This document shows positions 4,860 to 61,914 of a stretch of DNA of 64,000 nucleotides, piece after piece. How positions within the stretch are numbered: the stretch's first letter is position 1; each line of letters opens with the position of its first letter. This stretch comes from Cetorhinus maximus (lineage: Eukaryota), in NCBI RefSeq assembly GCF_964194155.1, contig NC_135902.1:43834001-43898000 (forward strand), given 5' to 3'. The notes beneath the pieces were generated by a model. The model saw only the letters and a list, made by a program, of their open reading frames with translations. It was not told where the DNA came from and did not search any database. A program made the translations under genes and the position numbers.

Positions 4860-5502
4860 GGGTAAAATTTTTAGCTCGGCGGGCACGTGCCCAACCCACT
4901 CAAGCTTAAAATGATGCGTGTTGACATCATGCGAGCGTCCCGACATCAGCGCGCAGTTGCGCAATATTTCATTCGGCGGGCACGCACCAGAGTCGGCAGG
5001 GCGCCCACCAGCAATTAAAAGGCCTGTTAAGACCATTAAGTTATCAATTAAATAGAATTTTTCGCTGCCTGTCCAACCTTATGGTTGGCGGGCAGGCGAA
5101 AAGGCCAAGCGGCCTTTGCACTTTTTAGGAAGCCTCATCCACGGGCGGGTTGAGGTTTCCTAAAGCAAATAAAAATTGAATTTAAAACTTAATTAATAAC
5201 ATGTCCCTGCTCATGTGGCAGAGTGACATGAGGGGACATGTTTCATTACATTTTTATTTTCTTTATTTTTTTTATATCTCCATCTCACCTGAGGCATAGA
5301 GCTGCTTCAGGGAGGTTATGGAACGTGCACTCGGGTGCATCCGTGAAGTTCACGCTCGCCCTGCTCGCACTCCACCCCACCCCCCCACCTGCACAGGCCG
5401 CCACTTGCACTTCACGCTGGTCGGGCCTTAATTGGCCCGCCGGTGTGAAATCGCAGTCCGGCTTCCCGACTGCCCCCGCCCAATATGGGTGAAATTCTGC
5501 CC
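4860..5502 (+). mobile_element. MITE / non-autonomous DNA transposon, copy 1
   Basis: Termini GGGTAAAATT...AAATTCTGCCC, flanks GTA/ATA. Homologous to copies 2-4. Confidence 0.8.
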
Positions 5503-31700: not shown

Positions 31701-34700
31701 CTGCCACCAACAATCTTTGACATATTCTTCTCTTTGAACTGAAGGAATATGAAAGCTTCATCAAGAGAGCATGTCTACTTGCATACCAGAGCTGATAGAA
31801 AGCTGTTCAACCTTACCCGGCTGGGATCCAAGACAAAAATGCCTCAAGTCCTCAAACAGCTGCTCTATGCTGATGATGCCACACTCATTCCAGACTGGGG
31901 AACACCTTCAGCAGAAAACAGACAGGCTTTCTCACACCTGCAAAGAGTATGGTTTGCCCATTAACCTCAGAAAGACAAGTGTCATGGTTCAGGATGTTGC
32001 TTTACTGCCATTAATCAGCATTGACAAGATGACACTGGAAGTTGTTTTACATATCTCGGCTCTACAATCACCAGCAATCTGTCACTTGATGCTGAAATCA
32101 ACACACGCGTTGCAAAAGGTACAGCTGTTTTGTCCAAGCTGAGTAAGAGTGTGGAACAACAGCAACCTGAGAACATCAAACTGCGTGTCAACCAAGCCTG
32201 CATCCTCAGTGCACTCCTCTACAGTAGTGCATTGCTAACAGGAAAAACAGCTGAACAGTTTCCATCTTTGCTGTTTCTGACAAATCCTCAATGTCTCTTG
32301 GCAGGACAACATCAGCTCAGAGATCCTGGAGCATGTTAATTCCATCAGCATGCACTTATTGCTAAGCCAAGACATCTGGGCTGGTCCGGCCATTTTCATC
32401 AGATGGACGACGGCCATGTACCCGAAGACTTTCTGTAAGGTGAACTGGGCACAGAGTCACAATCTGCTGGATGTTCATACCTCTGTTTTAAGGACACCTG
32501 CAAGCAAGATATTAAGATGGCTGATGTTTAACACTGACAACTAGGACACACTTGTTGTCAGCCATGACCTCTACAGGCTGACTATTTGGTAGGGCATTGG
32601 AAGAGGCGAGGCGAAATGGAAAGCTCTGCTGGTCAAGAAAAGGGCCCAGGGGAAAACCAAGACCAGCAAATCCTGCACCTTCTCAGCAAAGTGCCTTGAT
32701 CTGCAGCAAATGTGGCAGAGACTGCCATGACAGAGTGGGGTTCCTGAGCTCCACGTTTAACACAGAGTTGACCACCATCTTCTCATGAGAAGGAAGGCTG
32801 CCAAAGATGTAACCATAAATAATAAGCAATGCTAATTTGTCAGAATTCCACGGCCAGGGTTTTTCAGTCGTCAGGTGGGCTCAGTGGGAGCAGTCGCGGA
32901 GCCAACCGTGATTGGCTCCGCACCGCGATTTCACATGGACGGACCAACTAAAGCCCCCCTGTGTGGATCGCAAGCAGTAACGCTACCTGTGCGGGCAGGG
33001 GTAGGAGGGAGGAGGAAGAGCAGGCCTAGCGCACAGTTCACTCATGTGCGCAAAAGAGCGCTTCAATCTCCCTGAGGCACAGAGCTGCCTCAGGGAGTTT
33101 GAAGCGCTTTTTAAAAAAATATATAAGGACATTAAAAATTTAATGAAACATGTCCCCACTTATGACTGTGTCACATGAGATGGGACAAGTTTTTATTTTC
33201 AAAATAAAGTTTTTATTTCATCAGTATTAGCTTTAGGAAACCTCATCCCGCTCGTGGATGAGGTTTCCTAAAAAACATAAAGGCCGACTCAGGCATGCAT
33301 GCGCCGAACGAAATATCACACCAGTTCGCAATGACGTCAGGATGCACACCTGACGTTATCGTGCGTCATTTTACATTCCGGCGTGTCGGGCACACACGCA
33401 CGTTGAATGTAAAATTCTGCCCCACCTTGCTATCGTTTTATGAAGAAAAAACAGGTCAATGTACTAAATGCAAACAAACTTCAATGAGGTAGGTAAGCCT
33501 ATTTTGTAAAAGCTAAAAGATTTAGACACTTTAAAAAAAAAGTACTAAGAGTTATATTTTAAATCAAGTCTATATATACACACATCACAGTAATATGAAA
33601 AGAAATAAAGTAATTACACTGACCTGATTCTTAACTTCATTTCCCTGAACAGATGATTTAGGCTTTCGTGAACTCGCCATGCTAAGTGGCAACAAACCAA
33701 ATCTGGAAACAAAGATTCACAAGATTGATGCCATGTACAGATTAGTTAACCACTACTGACAAATTATTATGGATCCGAGCAAGTGAGAAAATTATCTACA
33801 TAAACATAATAAAATGCAATACGTTGGCTGAATTGCTGAGCATTGTCAAAGCAGAAACTGGAATTTGCTTATTGCATCAGCTGCACACACGCCTTCACTT
33901 TTTACCAGGGCCAGTTGGCAAGCCGGCACACAGGGGATTGAACTTCTCACCAAACACACACATTGTAAACTAAGCTGTTACTATAAACCCAGGTGGTCTA
34001 CATGTACTTGAACATTAGCAGCATTACTCAGCCAAATTAGCATTTTTCCTTCACTATCTTACTGAGCCACTTAAAAAAGAATACTTTTCTGGTGTGTTGG
34101 GAAGATTTGATTTGAGAACTTCAGTCTGCATGATAAACAAGCAATGCAATGCTTGTAAGGTGCTGAAACAGAATTACTGTGTTGGCTGATGTATTTCAAA
34201 CTTAGTGGGTTTCAGGAAGGATTCTAATCAACAAATGATATTTAGGATTATAAGAAATAGACCAAGGAAATATTGTGGCTATAAGGTCAGATGGACTGAA
34301 GAGCTCCATCTGCCGGAAAATTTTAAAAATTGGGGTGGGGGGCAGGTGTCCAAACAAGCAAATTAAATTTAGTACAAGATCTTGCATTTATATAGCACCT
34401 TTAATGTTGTAAAACATCCAAGGCCCTTCATAGGAAATGTTATCAAAGAACATTTGATGAGCAATCCTTTAGGATGGAGGTCTTCTGGTTTCCATAATTG
34501 TTAAATTCCTATTATCAGAGCAAAATTATTTTGGTATATAGAGCTATGTAGTCTCATCTGTTTGCCATTTGAATAGAAAACAGACCAACAGTATCTAATG
34601 ATCAAGCTTGGTCTGTATTGCAATTCTTATCAGACCACATCAACATGCACACAAGTTTACTGTTTGCTGCTGCAGGAATGCAACGAAATTCATTTACCGG

Positions 34701-49700: not shown

Positions 49701-52700
49701 TGAAAAACAGACACTGCTGGAGGCTCAAAGAAACAAGCACAAAAAGGAAGGAGGAGGCAGTACAAACTGTTCAATGATCTTAATCTTAGGGGTGAAGAAA
49801 TCCATGAGCTTTTTACATTTGCTGTTAAATGTAATTTTGGCAGTTAACCCACAGTGTTTTATTCTGTTACTGGTTTCTGCTCTTCAGTGTTCAACATTAT
49901 GTAAATAAAATCCACTTGCTTACATGTTGATCCATTGCTGAAGTGTGTCTCTCAGGTAATCACGGTTTATTGGATGAGCGAGTGTCCTAAGAGGCGGCTG
50001 AAAATCCACAATAGAAGGTGGTAAATATTTGAACCAGGTCTCAGATTTCATCTCGTCTTTTAACACTGTGATTCCTCTGTCTGCAAAGGTTAAGCAAAGA
50101 TGTGTTTAGTCACCTGTGAATAAAACAAATATTCTCACCAGTATTTCCAAACGCGCATACTGCCTAAACGCAATGATCTTCTATCTCAGATAACTGGATT
50201 TAAAGCTGCAGCTCTCACATAACTGATTTTTGACAAGACACAGAATCCAATACTATTATTATATACCAGTGCTTTCTTTAGTGTAGCAGGAACAATTAGC
50301 TCCAAGCAAACTGGGCGACCGCTTTGCAGAACACCTGCGGTCTGTCAGCAAGAAAGACCCAAACCTCCCTGTCGCTTGCCATTTTAACACTCCACCCTGC
50401 TCTCTTGCCCACATGTCTGTCCTTGGCTTGCTGCATTGTTCCAGTGAAGCCCAGTGCAAACTGGAGGAACAGCACCTCACCTTCCGACTAGGCACTTTAC
50501 AGCCTTCCGGGCTGAATATTGAATTCAACAACTTTAGATCTTAAACTCCCCCTCCCCCCATCCCGTTTCTTCCCCCGTTCCTTTTTTTTCCCAATAATTT
50601 ATATAGATTCTTCTTTTCCCACCTATTTCCATTATTTTTAAATCTACAACCAATACCCTGTCAGTCTTTCCACCCCACCCCCACTAGAGCTGTACCTTGA
50701 GTATCCTGCCATCCATTCTTAATTAGCACTTTTCTTAGATAATATCGCCACCTTCAACACCTCTTTGATCCTTTTGTCTGTGACATCTTTTGATTATCTG
50801 CTCCTATCACTGCTTGCTTGTCCCCACAACCACCCCACCCTTAACTTCTCTCCCCCCGCCCCCCCCCACCTTAAACCAGCTTATATTTCACCCCTCTCCT
50901 AACTATACTTCAGTTCTGTTGAAGGGTCATGTTGGACTCGAAACGTCAACTCTTTTCTTCTCCGCCGATGCTGCCAGACCTGCTGAGTTTTTCCAGGTAA
51001 TTCTGTTTTTGTTTTGGATTTCCAGCATCCGCAGTAGCTTTTTGTTTTTATCTCTGTGTTTAATTGACTGCCACTTCTCTTCAAGAAATGCCTTCCTTGA
51101 AGAAGTATTGCTCTGTTCTCCGACAGGATTTCCGCCTGTCTCTTCTGCCCTGTTCACCTTCATTGCTTTCCATTTCTCTCCTGGTGTTTGACAAGGTGTT
51201 TACTAAAACCCGCTTTCACAGCCATATTTCCTTTCTCAGTGACTGTCTCCGTCTCCGACTCACCCCACGTGGATTTCAACTGAAATTCCATCCCTCTTGT
51301 TTCGAACCCACCCAGGATTACAGGTATCTCCAGGACATAAAACGTTTCTCGGACTGCTGTTCCCGTCGCATTCTGAGATCCACACTCAGTGCCATGCGCC
51401 GCCATATGAACACACTCGACCTCTCCCTCCAGCAGCACCGCCGCACCCTTTTTCAAAGCTGCGCGTGCCCCCAGTTTCATTTTATTCTTCGCCTCATCCG
51501 ACGCCTCAACAAGAAACTTTCTCTCTTTCTCTCAAGTGCTAAGGAATGCAAGCTCCAACAACTCACCGACACCAACACCCATCTGGGACCCTCCACCCCT
51601 GCTTGTCCCTCCATCCCCACCCCATCTTCCAATCCCAGCCCCAGCCGCGTATTCACTATACCCCCTGACCTTCCCCTCTCTGATGCTGAACGTTCAGTGC
51701 TCAGCAAAGGACTTAGTTTCATACCCTTACGCCCTCATCTCAATGAATTTCGGGCTCGGCATGATGCTGAACTCTTCTTCCGCCGTCTTCGTCTCCGTGC
51801 TCACTTCTTTGGGCAGGAGTCCTCTCCCCGTTCAACGGACCCTTTTACCCACCTCCAATATTCTCCCTCCACCTGGACCCCTCCCTCTGGATTCTTACCT
51901 TCTGTTGATCTTTTCATTGAGAACTGTCGGCGTGACATTAGCCATCTCAATTTCTCTGCTCCTCTCACCCATTCTAATCTGTCTCTCTCTGAACTTACTG
52001 CACTCCGTTCTCTCAGGTCCAACCCCAACATTGTCATCAAACCCGCTGACAAGGGTGGTGCTGTTGTTGTCTGGCGCACTGACCTCTACCTCGTGGAGGC
52101 TGAGCGTCAACTCGCAGACACTTCCTCCTACCTCTCCCTGGACCATGACCCCACCACAGAACATCAAGCCATTGTTTCCAGGACTGTCACTAACCTCATC
52201 TCCTCTGGAGATCTTCCTCCCACAGCTTCCAACCTGATAGTCGCCCAACCTCGGACGGCCCGCTTCTACCTCCTACCCAAAATCCACAAACAGAACTGTC
52301 CTGGCAGACCGATCGTGTCAGCCTGTTCCTACCCCACGGAACTCATTTCGCGTTATCTTGACTCCCTTCTCTCTCCCCTTGTCCAGTCCCTTCCCACCTA
52401 CATCCGTGATTCCTCTGACACCTTACGTCACATCAACAATTTCCAGTTCCCTGGCCCCAACCGCTTCCTCTTCACCATGGATGTCCAATCCCTCTACACC
52501 TCCATCCCCCACCAGGATGGTCTGAGGGCCCTTAGCTTCTTCCTTGAACAGAGGCCCCAACAATCCCCATCCACCACTACTCTCCTCCGTCTGGCTGAAC
52601 TTGTTCTCACACTGAACAATTTCTCCTTTAACTCCTCTCACTTCCTCCAAATAAAAGGTGTGGCTATGGGTACCCGCATGGGCCCCAGCTATGCCTGTCT

Positions 52701-55700
52701 CTTTATAGGGTATGTTCCAGTCCTACTCCGGCCCCCTCCCACAACTCTTTCTCCGGTACATCGATGATTACTTCGGTGCTGCTTCATGCTCTCGTCGGGA
52801 CCTGGAAAAATTTATTAATTTTGCTTCCAATCTCCACCCCTCCATCATTTTCACATGGTCCATCTCTGACACTTCTCTTCTCTTCCTTGACCTCTCTGTC
52901 TCAATTTCTGATGATAGACTGTCCACCAATATCCATTACAAGCCTACCGACTCCCACAACTACCTCGACTACAGCTCCTCACATCCCGCTTCCTGTAAGG
53001 ACTCCATCCCATTCTCTCAGTTCCTTCGCCTCCATTGCATCTGTTCCGATGACGTTACCTTCAAAAACAGCTCCTCTGACATGTCCTCCTTCTTCCTTAA
53101 CCGAGGTTTTCCACCCACGGTCGTTGACAGGGCCCTCAACCGTGTCCGGCCCATCTCCCGCACATCCGCCCTCACGCCTTCTCCTCCCTCCCAGAAACAT
53201 GATAGGGTCCCCCTTGTCCTCACTTATCACCCCACCAGCCTCCGCATTCAAAATATCATCCTCCGCCATTTCCGCCAACTCCAGCATGAAGCCACCACCA
53301 AACACATCTTCCCTTCACCCCCCACCCCCCGCTAGCGGCATTCCGTAGGGATCGTTCCCTCCAGAACACCCTGGTCCACTCCTCCATCACCCCCTACTCC
53401 TCAAACCCCACCTATGGCACCTCCCCATGCCCACGCAGAAGATGCAACACCTGCCCCTTCACTTCCTCTCTCCTCACCGTCCAAAGGCCCAAACACTCCT
53501 TTCAAATGAAGCAGCATTTCACTTGCATTTCCCCTAACTTAGTCTACTGCATTCGTTGCTCCCAATGCGGTCTCCTCTGCATTGGAGAGACCAAACGCAA
53601 ACTGGGCGACCGCTTTGGAGAACACCTGCGATCTGTCAGCAAGAAAGACCCAAACCTCCCTGTCGCTTGCCATTTTAACACTCCACCCTGCTCTCTTGCC
53701 CACATGTCTGTCCTTGGCTTGCTGCATTGTTCCAGTGAAGCCCAACTCAAACCGGAGGAACAGCACCTCATCTTCTGACTAGGCACTTTACAGCCTTCCG
53801 GGCTGAATATTGAATTCAACAACTTTAGATCTTAAACTACCCCCCCCCGCCCCGTTTCTTCCCCCTCCCTTTTGTTTGTTTTTTTTCAATAATTTGTATA
53901 GATTCTTCTTTTCCCACCTATTTCCATTATTTTTAAATCTACAACCAATACCCTGTCAGTCTTTCCACCCCACCCCCACTAGAGCTGTACCTTGAGTATC
54001 CTGCCATCCATTCTTAATTAGCACTTTTCTTAGATAATATCACCACCTTCAACACCTCTTTGATCCTTTTGTCTGTGACATCTTTTGATTATCTGCTCCT
54101 ATCACTGCTTGCTTGTCCCCACAACCACCCCACCCTCAACTTCTCTCCCCCCGCCCCCCACCTTAAACCAGCTTATATTTCACCCCTCTCCTAACTATAC
54201 TTCAGTTCTGTTGAAGGGTCATGTTGGACTCGAGACGTCAACTCTTTTCTTCTACACCGATGCTGCCAGACCTGCTGAGTTTTTCCAGGTAATTCTGTTT
54301 TTGTTTTAGCTCCAAGTTATGCTGCTGACACTTTTAAACCCTGATAGACTTGTGGGCAAACTCAAGCTGAAGTATCTTTCTGGGATTGCTTGTATCTCTC
54401 CAATTCTAGTATCGCATGCAAGCAATCCTTCTTGTAAATTTGGTGAAAGAAGCCAGACCAGTGGATCACAGGAGGCGTAATACTGGAGTCCAACCGTGTC
54501 TTAAGTCAACAGTACCAACATGCAAGTTTTTTCAACAGGAGTCACTGGATTGTTATCAGGAGCTTTAACCAAATCTGTTTTTCTCTTCCCAGCTACTCAC
54601 TCCCATTCCCACATCCACTATTTCTGCCAAGAAAGATCAACAATTCAGCTCAGATCATGATCCAACGTAGCCTATATGTTACACATACCACTAATCCTTT
54701 GGAAAAGCAAGTCTGTACTCACTATTTGACCAGATAGCTAAGCATATTCAGAGAATTTTACATTACAAGAAATACTGTTACATATTATTTACAAAAAGAG
54801 GAAATAGTATGGGGACCTACAAAACAATGCTAGTCACTACACCTCTGCTAGAGTTTATTCCATTTGTCACCCAGTTGTGCTGTCAATTGCCAAACAGTTG
54901 TCAGTCAGCAAGCAACCAAGTTCTAGAATAATTTCTGTAGGCATTTAACAAGTTTAGAAACAATTTTTAAAGCAACTGGCATTGATAGACCCACATACCT
55001 GCTGAAGACTCACTTGTGATGGATGCCAACGTGTTAAAGAGAAGGCCGCTGGTCAGTGTGGTATCTGGCACTTTTCCTTCAGTCGGTGTATAAAACACAG
55101 CTTGAGCCTGGTACAATGTGGTGGCTAACAGTTCAACAAGTGAACATACCTGTGCCTTAATACCAGCACCTAAAGACATAACACTAATTAATTTCTGTAA
55201 GGTTCAACGTGTGAATAAGCTTTTCAATCCTTACAAGTAACATCAAGATAGGATAGAGTTTGTAATCCATTAGGATCAGCCCTAATAATTGGTTACAATA
55301 AATACAGTTTTCCTTTCTCATTTATCCAAAGACTAGATTCAAACAGGACTCCTTTTTCTACAGAAATAAGTGCTCACCATGGTGGGGTTGATTAAGTAAC
55401 TGTTGAATCGCTGATTTTCTAGCTAGAAGGAAATCAGCGAGAGCTTGGCGTGGTGAACTATCTTCCAGGAGCATTATGGAACAAAGAGCCTCTGCAATAG
55501 CTTGGTCTGATACTGCTCGGCCCTTCAGAAGCGTTTTACTCTCTTGTAAAATGGACGCTCTAGAAAAAACAAACAGATTGACTTAGAACCTGTATTGATC
55601 CCATTTCAGAGCAGAATGAAGCTTTCATTTCAATTAAGAGACAAAGCTGAATGATTAAGAAGGAATGAAATGTAGAACAAAGTGTGCTCATTTCTGATCA

Positions 55701-58700
55701 TGTAATGGAAAGAACAGGAATATTTGCACTTTGCATCCAATAATTATAAGCTACTTCACGTTCCATTTGTATCCTATAAAACTACAGCTCCACTGTATTA
55801 GTCACTCATTCCACTTGAACACCATCATCAGGAGTCCGAAACTGTCTACTGCTGCTTCGTGCCAACAATCTTTGTGATCACTCCGGCTGAGAATGTTAAA
55901 TTCATACTAACTACAACTGATTCAAAAGGCAGTTGTGTGCTGTAGTTTTAAATTCAACAGGAAATTAATTAAAATTTATTTCATTCATAGTTGCAATATC
56001 ACTGCAAAATTGCTAAACTTATGTGCAAACAAATGAAGTTACTAGAATCTTGCGCCGAAAGATGGGAATATACTTTTTATCCAATCCTGGATAGTGGGTC
56101 ACACTAGTTGTGGGGCTGGTAAAGAGCTTTGTGCCCGATACTAAGTGGATTTTATACCCCAAGTGAACTTCATTCTATTAAGGATGTGTGGTTGAGGGAG
56201 AGAGAACCCCACTAACTGGATCAGCTAGGAAGATTTTCAGTTGTGGCAATAGGAATGGGAACTTGTGTTATAACGCTGACCCACATCCTTGCAGTTATTT
56301 GTTGGCATCTTGAGAAGGCTGCCAAGCGTGATGTTTGGCTGTAATACAGAACAAAAAAAAGGAACAGCCTTGTTCAGAAAACTGCTGCCTCTGGCTGGCA
56401 CTCCATCAATCATTCGAAAGAACCAATCCAAAGACCAATTTGCACTCAGAATAGCTAGATCCTATCTAAAGCTGCACAGCACTGCATCCTCTTAAACAAG
56501 TTACAGATTGGCCCTGTCTTAGAAACCTTATTTCCCAGTTCTGCAGTAAATCAACATAATGCTTTAGCAAATGGGAAAATTCAGATGAGCAAGGAAATGG
56601 GAAACCCTAACTTGATGACAACTTTTTAAAATATAAAATAACGACACAGTCACCATGAATAATCTCACACTACAGAGTGGTGGGTAACAACAGCAACCCC
56701 AAGATGAATTATATGGCACCTTTAAAGTAGTAAAAATGTCCCTTGCTGCTTCACAGGAGCAACCTTAACTCCTGTTAACTCATTGTTTGAGAGAGCAGTT
56801 AACTCATTGTTTGAGAGAGAAGCAACCAAAACATTGCAAGTTTATTGAGGAATTGGACACAGTGGGAAAATTACAAAATATTCAATGCTATACAATACGG
56901 AGGAAAACTATGGTAACATATTGCACAACTCTTCTCCACAAATGTACCATACTCTCTTTAGTTACAAATATCTAACTCTTGACGGGGTGTCTCAAATGTA
57001 AATACTCGAGATAGATGACACTGTGGATCAGCCGCCCATTATAAAAAGAGCCCGACTTTATTTCTACAGTTGCAGATGTATCCCACTAGATAAAATGGCT
57101 GATGGTGGCTGAAAACTGGTATAAGTCTGGAAGTTCTTAAGAAAACTACTTTTCAGTCAGTGACTCAATAATTATTTAACAATAGAAGCCACCTTCAAGA
57201 TCATAACCAGAACATAACACCACAAGAGTTGCTGGTGGTTCTTCAGTTGGTATTCACAATGCAAGGAGTTTTTAAGAGCCAGAGCTACACCTCAGTATTG
57301 TATTAATTAAATTCTAACAAGCTACACCTCAGTATTGTATTAATTAAATTCTAACAATGAATCTTGACATCGTGTCTCCTGTTTTGTGAAAGTTTTTTTT
57401 CCTAGCTTGTGTTGTGTCCGAAACTCTGCCCCTTGATCAATGAAGTTCAAGCACAGAATTTACCACTGTCTTTTCAATAGGAGCGTTGAAACAGATGCCC
57501 ATGAGATAGCTTAGACTTTCCAGCTGACAGATCTGTAAACATTTCCAAGGGCTTTTTTATGTTTTCAACAACTACCAAGATTAATTCCAAAACAACTGCA
57601 CTTTGCTGTCATTTAACAAACCCGGCTTAAAACTATCATAATCCTCAAAGGCAGACGATTTCACAGGCATACAGCCAAAACTAGAAAGATGTAGAAACAT
57701 GTGAAAGATGATTCTAAAAACACTGCAACACTTCTGCTCAAACCTCCAAAATCGGTATTAAAACAATGCAAATATATTAAAATAATGGTAATTGACTGCC
57801 AAATGAAGTGAGAGTTATTTTTATTCATGACTGACTAACCTGAAGTGACCTGCTGCTGCTACTTGTCGAACAAGGATGGGAAAGCGGGCCAGAACAGGAC
57901 TGTAATAGGAACCAGAGGAGTCCAACTGGAGGATACTATGAATGTGACAGCACAGCAGATACATTTGAGTAGCATGGAGATATTGTGATGACTCTAAGGC
58001 ACTCCAAATTTTCTCTGGCATATTCAGAAGGAGCTTGATCTGTGCTGCCATACTGTAGAATTTCTCCTGGGATTGTTGCTGAGCCTGAAGCAAAAACATA
58101 AAATCACTGTCTGCATTTTACATTACTGTTGCTCACACCTCTGTACCTAGTTTAAAGATTAAGTCTACCAAGATCATATTAACCATATAAAGCCTACTTT
58201 TACTTTCAGAGATACGGACTGATCTGCTGGCTTTATTCTGATCTGTCTCATTGTCAAAACATCTCCCTCAATTGCTTTTCATTCAAGTCTGATTATTCCC
58301 GTGGCCTAAGGTGCCATCTCTGGCTCCCCCTCCCCAACCTCCGTGATCTGTTGTCCCCCTACAACTCAATTTATGATGATGGAGTCAGTTTCCACATACT
58401 ACTACTATAACCTGCTGCCTTTTTCCACATCAAGTCACGGATGGTCCTGAATTTTCTCCAACTAAATGTTGCAAAACCGATGCCACCCTTTTCAGTTCTT
58501 ACCATAAAATACGCATCTTAGGTCCAAATTCATTCTTTCCCTGGGGAAACATTACTCCCCCCCGCCCTCTCATTTGGAGGACAAAGTGCGGGAGCGGGCA
58601 CGCCTCCGATTGGAGGCGTGCCACCATTTTACGTGGGTGGGCCAATTAAGGCGTGACGCTCGGAAGCATTATGCGCTCCCTGTGCGGGCAGGGGGGATTC

Positions 58701-61447
58701 CCTGAGCCGGGAGTGCGCTCTTTCGCACATGCACACGTAACAGCGCACAGATCTCCCTGAGGCTAAGTGCTGCCTCAGAGAGATCGGCTCCGAATTAAAA
58801 TTTGTAATACAAATGATAAAAAAATTTCCCTGACATGTCCCCTCATGTGACCCTGTCACATGAGTTGGGACATGTCCATAACTTTTATTGAAACCTTTAA
58901 TAAAAATTTAAATACCCCCATGAAACCTCATCCCGCCCGTGGATGAGGTTTCATGCCTTTTCCGAAGCCAGCCTGGGTTCCCGGCCTGCCTGCCTACCTT
59001 AAGGTTGGACGGGCAGGTCCAATAATGACTTTAATTAGTTTTTCAATGGCCTCAATGGGCCGTTGACAGGTCGGCGAGCACGCAGCTGACTTGGCTGTGC
59101 CCCCACCAACCTGAAAACAGAAATGACGCGGGTTGACATCGGGAGTTCCAACCGACATCATCCCTTGTCATTTTACATGTTGGCGAGCAGGTCCCACCCC
59201 CGCTCGCTGACCAGAAGATCCTGCTCCTGGTGTTTATTACTGAACTCTATGTATACAACATTGATGACCTAATTTATGAATAAATTTCGAACCATATACA
59301 ATGGCAGTGCAAGATGGCACCCTAACTGGCAGTTGTCTACTAGGTCCTTCTCCTTTGCAATTTGATCCACTGCCATTCTTATTCCTGAACAACACCCACA
59401 GGCAGCGAGCTGCCAACCCCATATAATCTCTACTACTTACATCACCATTCCATCTAAAACCCTCATCTATGCCTCTGTTAATTCCAGATTCTTCCATTCC
59501 AAAGATGTATTCATCAATCTACCATTCTTCAACCTCTACATTACTTCAGCCCAAAACTCAGCTGGCCATACTCTTTCCTGAAGAATTTCCTCCAGCACAA
59601 AAACATTTAAAATTCTTATTCTCATGTTTAAGTCCCTCCGTGGCCTCACTCCTCCCAATCTCTAATATTTTCCAGCCCTTCAGGAAATCACTATTCGTTT
59701 GATGCCAGCTCCTCGTACATCTCTCCCTTTCCTTCACCCTACAATTGGTGGCAATGCCATCAGCCACCTAAGCATCAGACTGGAATTCCCTTCATAAATC
59801 CTTCCACCTCTTCGCCAAAGGATTTGTTCACTATTTTTAATATCTTCTTATTTGGTACAATATCCTTTTTTTTTAAGATTACACTGCTTAGATTTTTCTG
59901 CATTAAAAGTTGCTTTATAAATCCAATTTCATGTACTGTCAGCAAGGTGCCTTTTTCCACTTTAAATATCATCTGTCTCTGCCCATACCACCACCTCAAA
60001 TCCACATCAATATTATGGTCATCACTCAGATCAACTTTGCCAACCCTTTGACTAAAACATTGCTGCATGTATCCAAACCGACACTAATTCCCAAGCGTCT
60101 ATCACCCATCTCACCTTCAGCAGTCTCTATTTTATAAACTAGAATTCTCTCCCTCAACTCCTCTCACATCAGTATGCCTTATCCTACTTTCGGAAACATC
60201 CTCAAAAACTAATCTCTTTGGCCATACATTTATTTGGTTACTTCTCCTGACTATACAACTAATGCTGGATACTGTTCTTTTGGTCAGTTAAACACCATGA
60301 GATGTTTACTTTGTTATAACAAGTACTATTAATACAAATTGTAAATGCTGGGTGAGTTAGGTGTTTGCTAATGTCATAATAAAACACCGAAAACATGTTA
60401 GCTGAAAATTGATAAACGCAAAAATACGTAATACCGTATGCAGACCATTATAAGCTTAGTGCTGCTTTAGACACCAGTAAAAATTGTACCAGAATGAATT
60501 CATAAAGAAGAGACCAGTGGAATGGGGGGTAGAGAGAAGATAAGAAATAGGAGGCAGAGTAAGTCACGCTGCCCCTCGAGCCTGGTACTGTTCAATAAAA
60601 TTATGGTTGATCTTTGGCTTCATCCCCACTTTCCCCCCTATTCCTACTACATTCCTTAACCCCCATAGCATCTAAAAATACTCAACAATTGAGAATCCAC
60701 AGCTCTTTGGGATAGAGTATTCCAAAAATTTCACAGCCTCCTGATTGAAGAAATTACTAATCTCAGTCCAAAACGATCGGCCCTTATCCTGAGACTGTGC
60801 CCCCTAGTCCTGATGAAAGGTCACAGGTCCGTAACGCTGACCCTGTTCCTCTCTTCACAGATGTGAGCATTTTCTGTTTTTATTTCAGATTTCCAGCGCC
60901 ACCCCCCCACCTCCCTCCCTCAGTGTTTTTTTGCTTTGGGCCGCCTAGTTCTAGGTTCTCCAGCCAGGGGAAAACAGCCCCCTCAGCATCTACCCTGTCA
61001 AAACTCAACAGAAAAATAAGCTGCAATAATGAGTGGCACAGCTTTTTGTCCCTTTCGGCCCCTGTGATGAGGACACTATATAAACCCGGGGCTGTTGTGC
61101 AGAATTGGGCTGGCAGGCGCACACACACACACCTGGCTGCGCTTGGCCGTGTGAGGAGCGGCTCTGCCGGTGGCGGACGGTTTGATGCGGGTGCAGTACT
61201 CGTACATGTCCCGCACCGAGGTGACCACCTTCTCGGAGCACAGCCTCATGTCGGCGATGGTGTCGGCTGCCTCGATCAGGTCGCGGTACCTCTCGCCCAC
61301 CATCTGGCGCAGCTCCTCCTTCTTCTGCTCGATCTCAGCGCGGACCCTCCGCTCCACCTGCCGGATCTCCTCGGTGCCGTAGCGCTCGAAGAGGGAGCCG
61401 GGGTCCTGGATGTCGCTGACCCGCAGGTTCCTGGCGGACACGGCCAT
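25640..61447 (-). CDS. COG1: COG1 (conserved oligomeric Golgi complex subunit 1), 14 coding exons, about 987 aa
   Basis: Exons joined by hand: 315+245+182+171+157+211+801+147+162+128+109+110+79+147 = 2964 nt, in frame, all GT-AG. N-terminal Vps51/COG1 motif (EIEQKKEELRQMVGERYRDLIEAADTI) and C-terminus SLFKLGWLSSMTK* match vertebrate COG1. Confidence 0.97.
27110..27152. repeat. Tandem duplication, period 24
   Basis: CAATCCACAACATTCTAAA occurs twice. Confidence 0.9.
29650..32806 (+). mobile_element. Decayed RTE-clade LINE in COG1 intron 13
   Basis: Fragmented APE (QET.LAESGSLK). RT pieces GKAPGAD, KGDHSDCNNY, PESQCGFR, FIDLTKAF, LLYADD and YLGS. C-terminal CSKCGRDC zinc finger. RTE-like 3' end CCATCTTCTCATGAGAAGGAAGGCTGCC. 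Many stops and frameshifts. Confidence 0.88.
32852..33422 (-). mobile_element. MITE copy 3
   Basis: Reverse orientation relative to copy 1. Right end AAAATTCTGCCC. CAC/CAC 3-bp flanks. Confidence 0.8.
33624..33702 (-). CDS. COG1: COG1 coding exon 13
   Basis: Acceptor tttccag|A, donor CAG|gtcagt. Encodes (R)FGLLPLSMASSRKPK...KNQ. 79 nt. Confidence 0.93.
34698..34807 (-). CDS. COG1: COG1 coding exon 12
   Basis: Acceptor tttag|GTA, donor CG|gtaaat. Encodes VLFGLLTGTEKQY...NSQEPHNILPLASSQI. 110 nt. Confidence 0.95.
35554..35662 (-). CDS. COG1: COG1 coding exon 11
   Basis: Acceptor aacag|G, donor TCA|gtgagt. Encodes VADALESHIDPFDLDVFTPHLNNNL...QRTS. 109 nt. Confidence 0.95.
35774..35901 (-). 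CDS. COG1: COG1 coding exon 10
   Basis: Acceptor cttcag|ATT, donor AG|gtacgg. Encodes FPLTQNRALQLLFDLRYL. 128 nt. Confidence 0.95.
38042..38203 (-). CDS. COG1: COG1 coding exon 9
   Basis: Acceptor gatag|CCA, donor AAG|gtacgt. Encodes PSWYVQSLLFNFCQEVNRVGGHALPKVTLQELL. 162 nt. Confidence 0.95.
38920..39380 (+). mobile_element. Old CR1-like fragment
   Basis: Degenerate MHIGRK, RRVTRLI and RL*GDL.EV.KI-like remnants. Confidence 0.55.
40635..41120 (-). mobile_element. CR1/HER1-like LINE 3' fragment
   Basis: ORF 40770-41126 encodes [29 protein letters not shown]. Same family as 13080-13613. Confidence 0.92.
41755..41901 (-). CDS. COG1: COG1 coding exon 8
   Basis: Acceptor ttaag|GCT, donor CAG|gtttga. 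Encodes ALVYRFTQ...ATNWDEIEIQEETEAGNSVTSKIRLPVQ. 147 nt. Confidence 0.95.
44136..44936 (-). CDS. COG1: COG1 coding exon 7 (large exon)
   Basis: Acceptor ctgtag|GCA, donor AAG|gtcagt. 801 nt open frame including MKAQALTLCVQSFCSALDSKLKVKLDD and VLFMARLCQSIGELCPHLKQC. Confidence 0.95.
45105..46030. mobile_element. Second-family PLE remnant: inverted pLTR pair (45105-45419 minus, 45571-46030 plus)
   Basis: The arms are reverse complements. The plus arm encodes HLLEVTYIRLQGPVLCKQKEHV, resembling a PLE GIY-YIG C-terminus. A CR1 3' end sits between the arms at about 45421-45570. Confidence 0.75.
46035..46760 (-). mobile_element. Old L2-like 3' fragment
   Basis: Purine-rich plus strand homologous in reverse to 2030-2576, including LKT.IFDQA and the tail. 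Confidence 0.6.
47210..47420 (-). CDS. COG1: COG1 coding exon 6
   Basis: Acceptor aaag|G, donor CAG|gtagat. Encodes CKDDIKMGIGNLLIYVKSLKGLAGIRDAVWELL...FLDRLQ. 211 nt. Confidence 0.95.
47821..48117 (+). mobile_element. tRNA-derived SINE with RTE-like body and (GGA)n tail
   Basis: A-box-like TGGTTCAGTGG, B-box-like GGCTCAAGTCC, Bov-A/RTE-like segment GAAGGCAATGGCAAACCACCGCAGTACTTTGCCAAG. TSD ATAGGATTATGG (47809-47820) / ATAGGGTTATGG (48118-48129). Confidence 0.8.
49924..50080 (-). CDS. COG1: COG1 coding exon 5
   Basis: Acceptor ttgcag|AC, donor AT|gtaagc. Encodes RGITVLKDEMKSETWFKYLPPSIVDFQPPLRTLAHPI...QQWIN. 157 nt. Confidence 0.95.
50306..51015 (+). repeat. 5' pseudo-LTR (pLTR) of the PLE
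   Basis: About 710-nt near-identical copy of 53597-54307 containing the endonuclease C-terminus, the 3' UTR and the hammerhead-like motif. Confidence 0.92.
50912..50951 (+). ncRNA. Minimal type I hammerhead-ribozyme-like motif in the 5' pLTR
   Basis: AGTT-CTGTTGA-A-GGGTC(atgttg)GACTC-GAAA-CG-TC-AACT. Stem I AGTT/AACT, stem II GGGTC/GACTC, GAAA box, ACGT palindrome. Core reads CUGUUGA rather than CUGANGA. Confidence 0.7.
51064..53833 (+). pseudogene. PLE RT/GIY-YIG polyprotein ORF, disrupted
   Basis: Split across ORFs 51064-52767, 52712-53335 and 53506-53778. Frameshifts near 52713 and 53320-53335. Premature TGA at 53776-53778, which is CGA in the 5' repeat copy. Confidence 0.9.
53597..54307 (+). 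repeat. 3' pLTR of the PLE
   Basis: Direct repeat of 50306-51015 with scattered substitutions. Confidence 0.92.
54204..54243 (+). ncRNA. Hammerhead-like motif in the 3' pLTR, with GAAA mutated to GAGA
   Basis: Same fold as 50912-50951 but reads GACTC-GAGA-CGTC. Confidence 0.55.
54999..55169 (-). CDS. COG1: COG1 coding exon 4
   Basis: Acceptor tttag|GT, donor AG|gtatgt. Encodes GAGIKAQVCSLVELLATTLYQAQAVFYT. 171 nt. Confidence 0.95.
55378..55559 (-). CDS. COG1: COG1 coding exon 3
   Basis: Acceptor ttctag|A, donor G|gtgagc. Encodes ASILQESKTLL...EALCSIMLLEDSSPRQALADFLLARK...NQPHH. 182 nt. Not in the ORF track. Confidence 0.95.
56774..56819. repeat. Tandem duplication, period 24
   Basis: GTTAACTCATTGTTTGAGAGAG occurs twice, separated by CA. 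Confidence 0.9.
57283..57356. repeat. Perfect 37-bp tandem duplication
   Basis: AGCTACACCTCAGTATTGTATTAATTAAATTCTAACA occurs twice. Confidence 0.95.
57840..58084 (-). CDS. COG1: COG1 coding exon 2
   Basis: Acceptor ttcag|GCT, donor AG|gttagt. Encodes EKFYSMAAQIKLLLNMPEKIWS...RQVAAAGHFR. 245 nt. Confidence 0.95.
58544..59226 (-). mobile_element. MITE copy 4
   Basis: Same internal palindromes as copies 1 and 3. Degenerate TIRs. CTG/CTG 3-bp flanks. Confidence 0.78.
60807..60900 (+). mobile_element. Short PLE pLTR-derived fragment nested in a CR1 remnant
   Basis: CTGATGA-A-AGGTC...GTAA-CG, followed by TTTTCTGTTTTTATTTCAGATTTCCAGC as in the pLTR. The host CR1 piece runs about 60540-61000 on the minus strand. 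Confidence 0.65.
61133..61447 (-). CDS. COG1: COG1 coding exon 1 (MAVSARNLRV...KRSQ)
   Basis: ATG in Kozak context (GCGCCATGG). Encodes LFERYGTEEIRQVERRVRAEIEQKKEELRQMVGERYRDLIEAADTI. Donor CAG|gtgtgt. 315 nt. Confidence 0.96.
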
Positions 61448-61914
61448 GGCGCCGGGAGGGAAACGGTCGCTCCTCCACCCCGGTAGCGAGTGATCGGCAG
61501 AGCCAGGCCTCGCACAGTCTAACCTCCCGATTTAAACAAAAAAACGCCACCGGAGAATCGGCCACGGAACAACCGGTAAACAATGGCTGTTTAGTCGCTG
61601 CTTTCCCTTCAGCAGGAACCCTCTCTCCAAACAGACGTGGCCCTCAGCGATGGGGGAGCATAATGCGCTTGCGCGCGGGGACGAAGCCGCGGCGGTGCAT
61701 GCGCAGTAGTCGAACCGGCCGGGTGGACGCGTGCGCACTTCTTGAATCACTCCGGCTGACGCGTGCGCCTTGATGGAACGGGGTCCGGTCGACGCATGCG
61801 TATTTGTGGTGGTGTGGCTGCGCCTGCGCCATTCATTTTCTACACCCCCCCCCTCCCCCCACCACCCTGGCTGGGCTTGGGGGAATGAGGGGGGCGGGGC
61901 GGCTGTCTCCGAGC

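Follow-up and report, generated by a model that had tools for sequence, protein, structure and literature searches.

Organization of the element and its hammerhead motif

The window analysed here, a 64,000-nucleotide stretch of the Cetorhinus maximus genome, holds one broken Neptune-like Penelope-like element (PLE) with a hammerhead motif in each of its two pseudo-LTRs (pLTRs). The insertion spans 50306–54307 and is flanked by an 11-bp target-site duplication, the left copy at 50296..50306 (whose last base may be element-derived) being identical to the right copy at 54306..54316. It is a seamless more-than-unit copy within this single duplication and begins with a forward-strand partial tandem copy (50306..51015) containing the endonuclease 3’ end and the 5’ pLTR, seen as direct repeats D1, D2, and D5; the 5’ and 3’ repeats of the insertion have 20 mismatches in 703 columns. 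The element terminus lies about 68 nt past the predicted hammerhead cut, at the first of two tail sites.

The broken open reading frame (51088..53835, forward strand) encodes a reverse transcriptase (RT) and a GIY-YIG endonuclease, with the DKG motif, a CX4CXXC linker, and a CCHH endonuclease recognizable in the translations. Relative to an intact 917-residue ORF in a copy with C at hammerhead position 6, it has a 14-nt deletion near 52713, an 8-nt insertion near 53324, and a stop at 53776. Its ATG at 51088 matches the start of the relative’s ORF and lies 140 nt past the cut, as a first-pass annotation of this DNA had placed it. The relative matches Pfam RVT_1 and GIY-YIG just below the curated cut-offs. 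A single ORF with RT followed by a C-terminal GIY-YIG domain, DKG, a CX2-5CXXC linker, and CCHH is the organization of EN+ PLEs, and these features fit the definition of Neptune and Nematis in the parts of Craig 2021 (PMC8557442) from which the criteria were taken; the assignment is by ORF motifs rather than RT phylogeny and is to the Neptune/Nematis type. Partial tandems, inverted truncated partners, and a tail are also held in common with these elements (PMC8557442). An intron at an AG/GT-like site near 50995 was considered and rejected, as the GT is not retained across subfamilies.

Outside the element, there is a COG1-like first exon at 61076–61528 on the reverse strand (Pfam Vps51/EXO84/COG1 N-terminal) and a possible downstream exon at 54960–55160 on the same strand. 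The element may lie antisense within an intron of this COG1-like gene, in which case the hammerhead strand would be absent from the host pre-mRNA. A second dispersed repeat with internal palindromes is present at 5110–5273, 33037–33286, and 58626–58952 (families D8, D9, I3, I4, and I9).

The 5’ motif (50912..50951, forward strand) is a minimal type I hammerhead with an A6U core (U6 at 50919) and a predicted cut after 50947. It reads as stem I AGTT, CTGTTGA, an extra A, stem II and its loop (GGGTC-ATGTTG-GACTC, including one G.U pair), GAAA, CG-TC with C17 at 50947, and AACT. The 3’ pLTR motif (54204..54243, forward strand) is the same except at 54234, where a private A14G substitution converts GAAA to GAGA. 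Direct reading of the sequence bears out the parts that the first-pass annotation had named in both copies, including this last change. The 5’ core departs from CUGANGA...GAAA by the U at position 6 and otherwise matches, and the 3’ core departs twice, at U6 and A14G. In its remaining features the motif resembles the metazoan PLE minimal hammerheads of Cervera and de la Pena 2014 (PMC4209133, compared in part): a type I arrangement with a 4-bp stem I, a 5-bp stem II closed by G10.1-C11.1, an extra base after A9, no stem III, a palindromic C15.2-G16.2 (CG), an NUH cleavage triplet, and a location in both pLTRs about 3.3 kb apart. The 50912 motif agrees with the consensus of their Fig S3 except at position 6, where all 56 rows have A, their descriptor having fixed the catalytic boxes, whereas the family described here mostly has U or C; the sole core change reported in the parts of that paper compared is U3-A8. 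Identity as a PLE minimal hammerhead is supported by pLTR location, stems, and the CG palindrome and cleavage triplet, and we class the motif as a variant that fails a strict test of the core, and as a candidate rather than a proven ribozyme.

An Rfam scan of the window gave no hammerhead match, and the 40-mer folds no better than shuffled sequences (z −0.71), as expected for a motif lacking stem III. In each pLTR (50929–50934 and 54221–54226) loop II is 6 nt long as compared to 5 nt in most family copies, so the extra nucleotide was already in the template of the window copy. Downstream, a forward-strand segment at 50967..51029 contains the two 3’-end (tail) sites and a predicted hairpin, an RNAalifold helix without covariation that is weakly supported (z 0.22). 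A forward-strand fragment of an older related family with A6 is present at 60806..60900; the canonical CTGATGA noted in the first-pass annotation at 60810 is there, but the second core box (GTAA-CGC) and stem II are broken and the fragment is decayed.

Position 6 and conservation of the motif across the family

We counted family members in the 3.99-Gb genome by exact-context pattern matches, which under-count old copies. Patterns restricted to the stem II sequence of the window copy gave 19,857 U6U7, 10,074 C6, and 2,758 A6 matches, and the reversed-pattern control gives none against the 19,857 for U6U7, so the motif is not due to chance. Generalizing stem II yields 64,275 matches, of which 12,363 are A6, 641 are G6, and by subtraction 51,271 (about 80%) are U6 or C6; the element is very abundant. 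G5 is altered in only 1,171 copies. A separate sample was drawn with a downstream anchor that has 88,117 exact matches; 162 copies were collected and 112 have the full motif, 50 truncated or too diverged copies being excluded, and in these 112 position 6 is A in 38, C in 24, G in 3, and U in 47. G6 is not accepted as a subfamily, its 641 copies (about 1%) being near the level of G5 decay; among the matches listed, G6 copies cluster in one stem II context. When contigs were aligned to an A6 copy, the share of U6 in summed depth (at place 1577) was 51% in organism A, 56% in C, 83% in D, and 30% in B; these depths are not copy numbers and derive from assembled contigs whose RNA status is mostly guessed; U6 is found in contigs of three other organisms besides this genome.

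These counts show that U6 is not private to the locus but is older than the insertion, and that the family spread with it, as the first-pass annotation had supposed. Its description of a U6 core variant is nonetheless an understatement, because the youngest subfamilies have C there, and what the family shows is release of position 6 from the requirement for A, not a core specialized for U.

The remainder of the motif is well kept. C3, U4, G5, G8, A9, A13, A14, A15.1, and U16.1 are each retained in 107–112 of the 112 motifs and G12 in 99, the remainder at G12 being CpG-type decay, with a mild bias in that the parse score included core bases. Other subfamily changes obey hammerhead rules: N7 is free, N17 is only C (37/112) or U (75/112), and 10.2 is A or G opposite U. 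We compared the majority letters of six subfamily groups (82 copies, including pattern-selected loci), and none of ten core positions differs among the six groups, whereas 33/63 flank columns do (p 0.0015). When the comparison is restricted to the four groups without A6, the values are 0/10 and 20/63 (p 0.03, or 0.009 if four further positions are included). Support for conservation once A6 was lost is modest (p 0.01–0.03), and constraint on the promoter at the DNA level could account for some of that conservation.

Covariation is seen in stem II, whereas stem I changes are limited to a one-sided U.G change plus, among the oldest copies, a C.A mismatch. A stem II pair has changed from U-A to C-G in the youngest C6 group, a compensatory change that followed A6 loss. 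The U.G intermediate is found in 381 copies, and 68 of 100 among the matches listed share one loop (hand count), several of them as inverted pairs, so the intermediate transposed. The C.A alternative is found in 165 copies with the same loop in 9 of 100 among the matches listed (hand count), and this loop diversity makes the C.A copies look like decay. Stem II covaries across copies through a U-A, U.G, C-G series and, with the fold apparently still under selection, the vestigial fold that the first-pass annotation had offered as one option is unlikely.

The A6 subfamilies share stems, flanks, and ORF with the others, which supports descent from A6 hammerheads of the same family. An endonuclease tree of 35 copies forms a ladder from A6 to U6 to C6 (three of 32 branches strong, midpoint root) and places the window copy in a 100/97 clade with ten C6 and four U6 rows; this ladder, together with A6 in all of the published examples, suggests that A6 is ancestral. 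In a flank tree of 86 copies, A6 and U6 are mixed with at least seven forced changes of the A6 label, although bootstrap has not settled, so that U6 must have had repeated origins or there was recombination between subfamilies. The flank tree thus gives no support to one origin of U6, although the weakly resolved ORF tree is compatible with it. CpG decay is 14/80 in A6A7, 6/64 in A6U7, 19/188 in U6U7, 4/48 in C6U7, and 0/44 in C6C7; the similar values for A6U7, U6U7, and C6U7, taken with the changes of the A6 label, indicate that the A to U step was not one clean event. Within-group divergence is about 0.10 for A6A7 and 0.02–0.06 for the other groups of two or more, too poorly resolved to serve as a clock. 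The stem I C.A mismatch of the A6A7 group (the oldest, e.g. L022, L034, and L038) is replaced by U-A in later groups, and this canonical-core group with its weaker stem I may be attenuated in another way.

Promoter elements and the ends of copies

A TATA-like box at 50882..50888 (forward strand), a putative promoter element, lies 30 nt upstream of 50912. Of 86 copies whose upstream sequence is intact, 80 have a similar box 27–31 nt before the first A; only this spacing is informative, because the motif used to pick the copies contained the box. An Initiator-like element (50910..50916, forward strand) is called from its match to the Inr consensus and from the pile-up of copy 5’ ends, and the RNA start is predicted at 50912–50913, where stem I begins. 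Putative TATA and Inr elements are likewise present in rotifer pLTRs (PMC3846280), although a start site coinciding with the first base of the hammerhead was not found in the parts of PMC8557442 and PMC3846280 compared.

We mapped the ends of 130 copies that match the anchor with no more than one mismatch. Of these, 26 have 5’ ends at 31–35 nt upstream of the cut, five at 0 to +4, and 50 beyond −120, and the 3’ ends fall at two sites, about 65–75 nt (60/130) and 100–110 nt (50/130) past the cut. In the younger U6/C6 families, genome-wide 15-nt windows contain 4,955 copies at the motif 5’ edge and 929 around the cut, a ratio that is rough because the two patterns differ. Among the first 100 of the 4,955 listed, 27 start at −34, 15 at −36, 12 at −35, and 11–13 at −33 (hand tally), and a scripted check places 21 of 30 loci at −36 to −32. 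Among 100 matches listed for the cut-site window, 19 are internal deletions and 81 are truncations spread from −5 to +9 (hand tally). At −1/0 there are 17 of these 81, where a uniform spread would give 10.8 (post hoc p 0.037), and microhomology with an inverted partner explains at least five of the 17. Cut-site ends are found in 3/55 copies of the older, mostly A6 families versus 2/52 and 2/58 in the younger ones, with no sign in these 55, 52, and 58 copies that A6 copies are cut more often.

The first-pass annotation suggested that cleavage may define the transcript ends, which the end map does not support. Copy 5’ ends cluster where the hammerhead begins, 32–36 nt upstream of the cut, and are nearly flat around the cut itself, and 3’ ends lie about 65–110 nt past it. 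The promoter rather than cleavage probably sets the RNA 5’ end, the RNA would start at 50912–50913 with the hammerhead as its first 40 nt, and the inserted templates appear to have been uncut. Alternatively, RNA could be processed where the 5’ ends pile up, or integration could favor that position. The end map matches that of PAc, a Poseidon element of Anolis (Frangieh 2024, PMC11167929, compared in part), in which reverse transcription starts at two tail sites downstream of the hammerhead, unprocessed RNA is the template, and no RNA ends lie at the cut.

Head-to-head inverted pairs are common among the copies; each arm starts at the first bases of the hammerhead, and the result is a short palindromic insertion (e.g. 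L001/L002, L004, L009/L010, and L099). The base preceding copies that start at −34 is T in 17/27 (hand count), which is above chance; in U6 copies, slippage on a short internal repeat accounts for part of the excess.

Models for the role of the motif

We favor, at about even odds (roughly 0.5), a model in which the motif is an attenuated hammerhead, with A6 replaced by U or C, the rest of the core and the stems kept under selection, and self-cleavage likely dependent on a dimer or a protein. The lineage would have replaced A6 by U and then C while keeping the other core bases and both stems. With transcription starting at 50912–50913 from the TATA and Inr elements in the pLTR, the motif would occupy the predicted first 40 nt of the element RNA, and a cut at +36 of the capped mRNA would both decap it and split the template needed by the RT. 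Because fast cutting would harm both cap and template, slower cores may be tolerated or favored, and the short copies would be run-off products of uncut RNA. We rank this model first because position 6 alone departs from the hammerhead rules, whereas the catalytic G8 and G12 are retained, as are G5, the palindrome, and an N17 that can be cleaved. Published changes at position 6 slow hammerheads: a natural A6C variant cleaves slowly but detectably, with kobs <0.1 per min in Mg2+ (PMC3088659), A6C is strongly reduced in Mg2+ and rescued by Mn2+ (PMC7151607), and in a deep scan all CUGA mutants except a C3-G8 swap have low activity (PMC9901934), these papers being compared in part. No A6U cleavage rate was found in the literature. 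Minimal hammerheads are weak even with A6, and together with the deep scan this suggests that A6U may be effectively dead. Evidence against a throttled ribozyme is that copy ends give no clear footprint of cut RNA, although RNA that had been cut would not have to serve as a template. A proposal that U6 makes a specific inactive helix was dropped, since in folding predictions C6 breaks the helix and A6 monomers misfold too.

Somewhat behind this, we consider it possible that the motif is non-catalytic, with its fold and sequence kept as a binding or positioning element for the element protein at the RNA 5’ end that overlaps the DNA promoter. The uncut templates and the lack of a clear cut-site pile-up fit such a model, the 5’ strand of stem I and C3 overlap the Inr-like element, catalytic mutants left insertion in vitro unaffected (PMC11167929, in part), and Naiad PLEs proliferate without hammerheads (PMC8557442, in part). 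The folding predictions in which a core with U6 can close up as an inactive hairpin also fit, although the predicted monomers of A6 versions are inactive too. However, a simple hairpin needs none of G5, G8, G12, the C3-G8 pair, the palindrome, or an N17 restricted to C and U, yet all persist, two of them in hypermutable CpGs. That A6U is instead a neutral first step of decay, which hitch-hiked with successful master elements and left the rest too little time to erode, seems unlikely to us. The comparison covers no more than about six subfamily groups, its result among non-A6 groups is modest (p 0.03), and ORF substitution counts (36 nonsynonymous and 28 synonymous shared, versus 151 and 83 private) do not clearly show purifying selection, but the compensatory stem II change after A6 loss passed through a wobble rather than a mismatch, 20/63 flank columns changed over the same interval, and U6 is found in four organisms. 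Least probable, and by our estimate very improbable, is the stronger reading of the first-pass annotation, a fully active U6 core whose cleavage and religation give unit-length or circular templates that define the element ends, as modeled in PMC4209133 (in part). A circular template would explain the seamless more-than-unit insertion in one target-site duplication, and degraded or religated cut RNA would leave no genomic footprint; against this, copy ends lie at the predicted start and the tail sites rather than at the cut, published position-6 changes lower activity in the parts of the literature compared, and a template switch across the terminal redundancy could also yield seamless tandems.

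Within the attenuated-hammerhead model, a more specific proposal is that a dominant vertebrate PLE lineage tuned its ribozyme down stepwise from A6 to U6 to C6, with cutting only when gated by an element protein or a partner RNA; we regard this as rather doubtful. Such tuning would be explained by the position of the ribozyme, as the capped 5’ end of the mRNA that carries it. Thousands of short copies from its first base would be strong-stop-like products, and seamless tandems would arise, as in retroviruses, by template switching across the terminal redundancy without cleavage.

Minimal hammerheads in PLEs and a natural A6C are already published. The closest parallel is the A6C hammerhead of phage Bcep176 (Perreault 2011, PMC3088659; Naghdi 2020, PMC7151607; both in part), a natural position-6 change with the remaining core intact. 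It differs in being a single phage motif, A6C only, that was assayed and rescued by Mn2+, whereas the motifs described here are known from sequence, include both A6U and A6C, number in the tens of thousands, and lack stem III. PAc similarly has a hammerhead at the pLTR-ORF junction, although it belongs to the Poseidon clade, its hammerhead overlaps the ORF start rather than lying in the 5’ UTR as here, and no position-6 change is described in the parts of PMC11167929 compared; cleavage by the anole hammerhead requires protein, and insertion in vitro does not need the hammerhead (PMC11167929). A natural A6U PLE family was not found in full-text searches of the literature, which included parts of PMC2377424, PMC6765202, PMC6155905, and a 2026 retrozyme preprint, with the PLE hammerhead variants of Lunse et al. 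2016/2017 outside the comparison. The role of hammerheads in PLEs is called unclear in PMC8557442 (in part), and this one lineage offers A6, U6, and C6 in the same backbone, a member with an intact ORF, and tens of thousands of copies, such that the map of template starts and ends and the A6/U6/C6 series make the role directly testable. If stepwise tuning is true, the family would provide a natural allelic series with which to test the purpose of PLE hammerheads. We also note that about 80% of the motifs in this family would be missed by searches whose descriptor requires CUGANGA.
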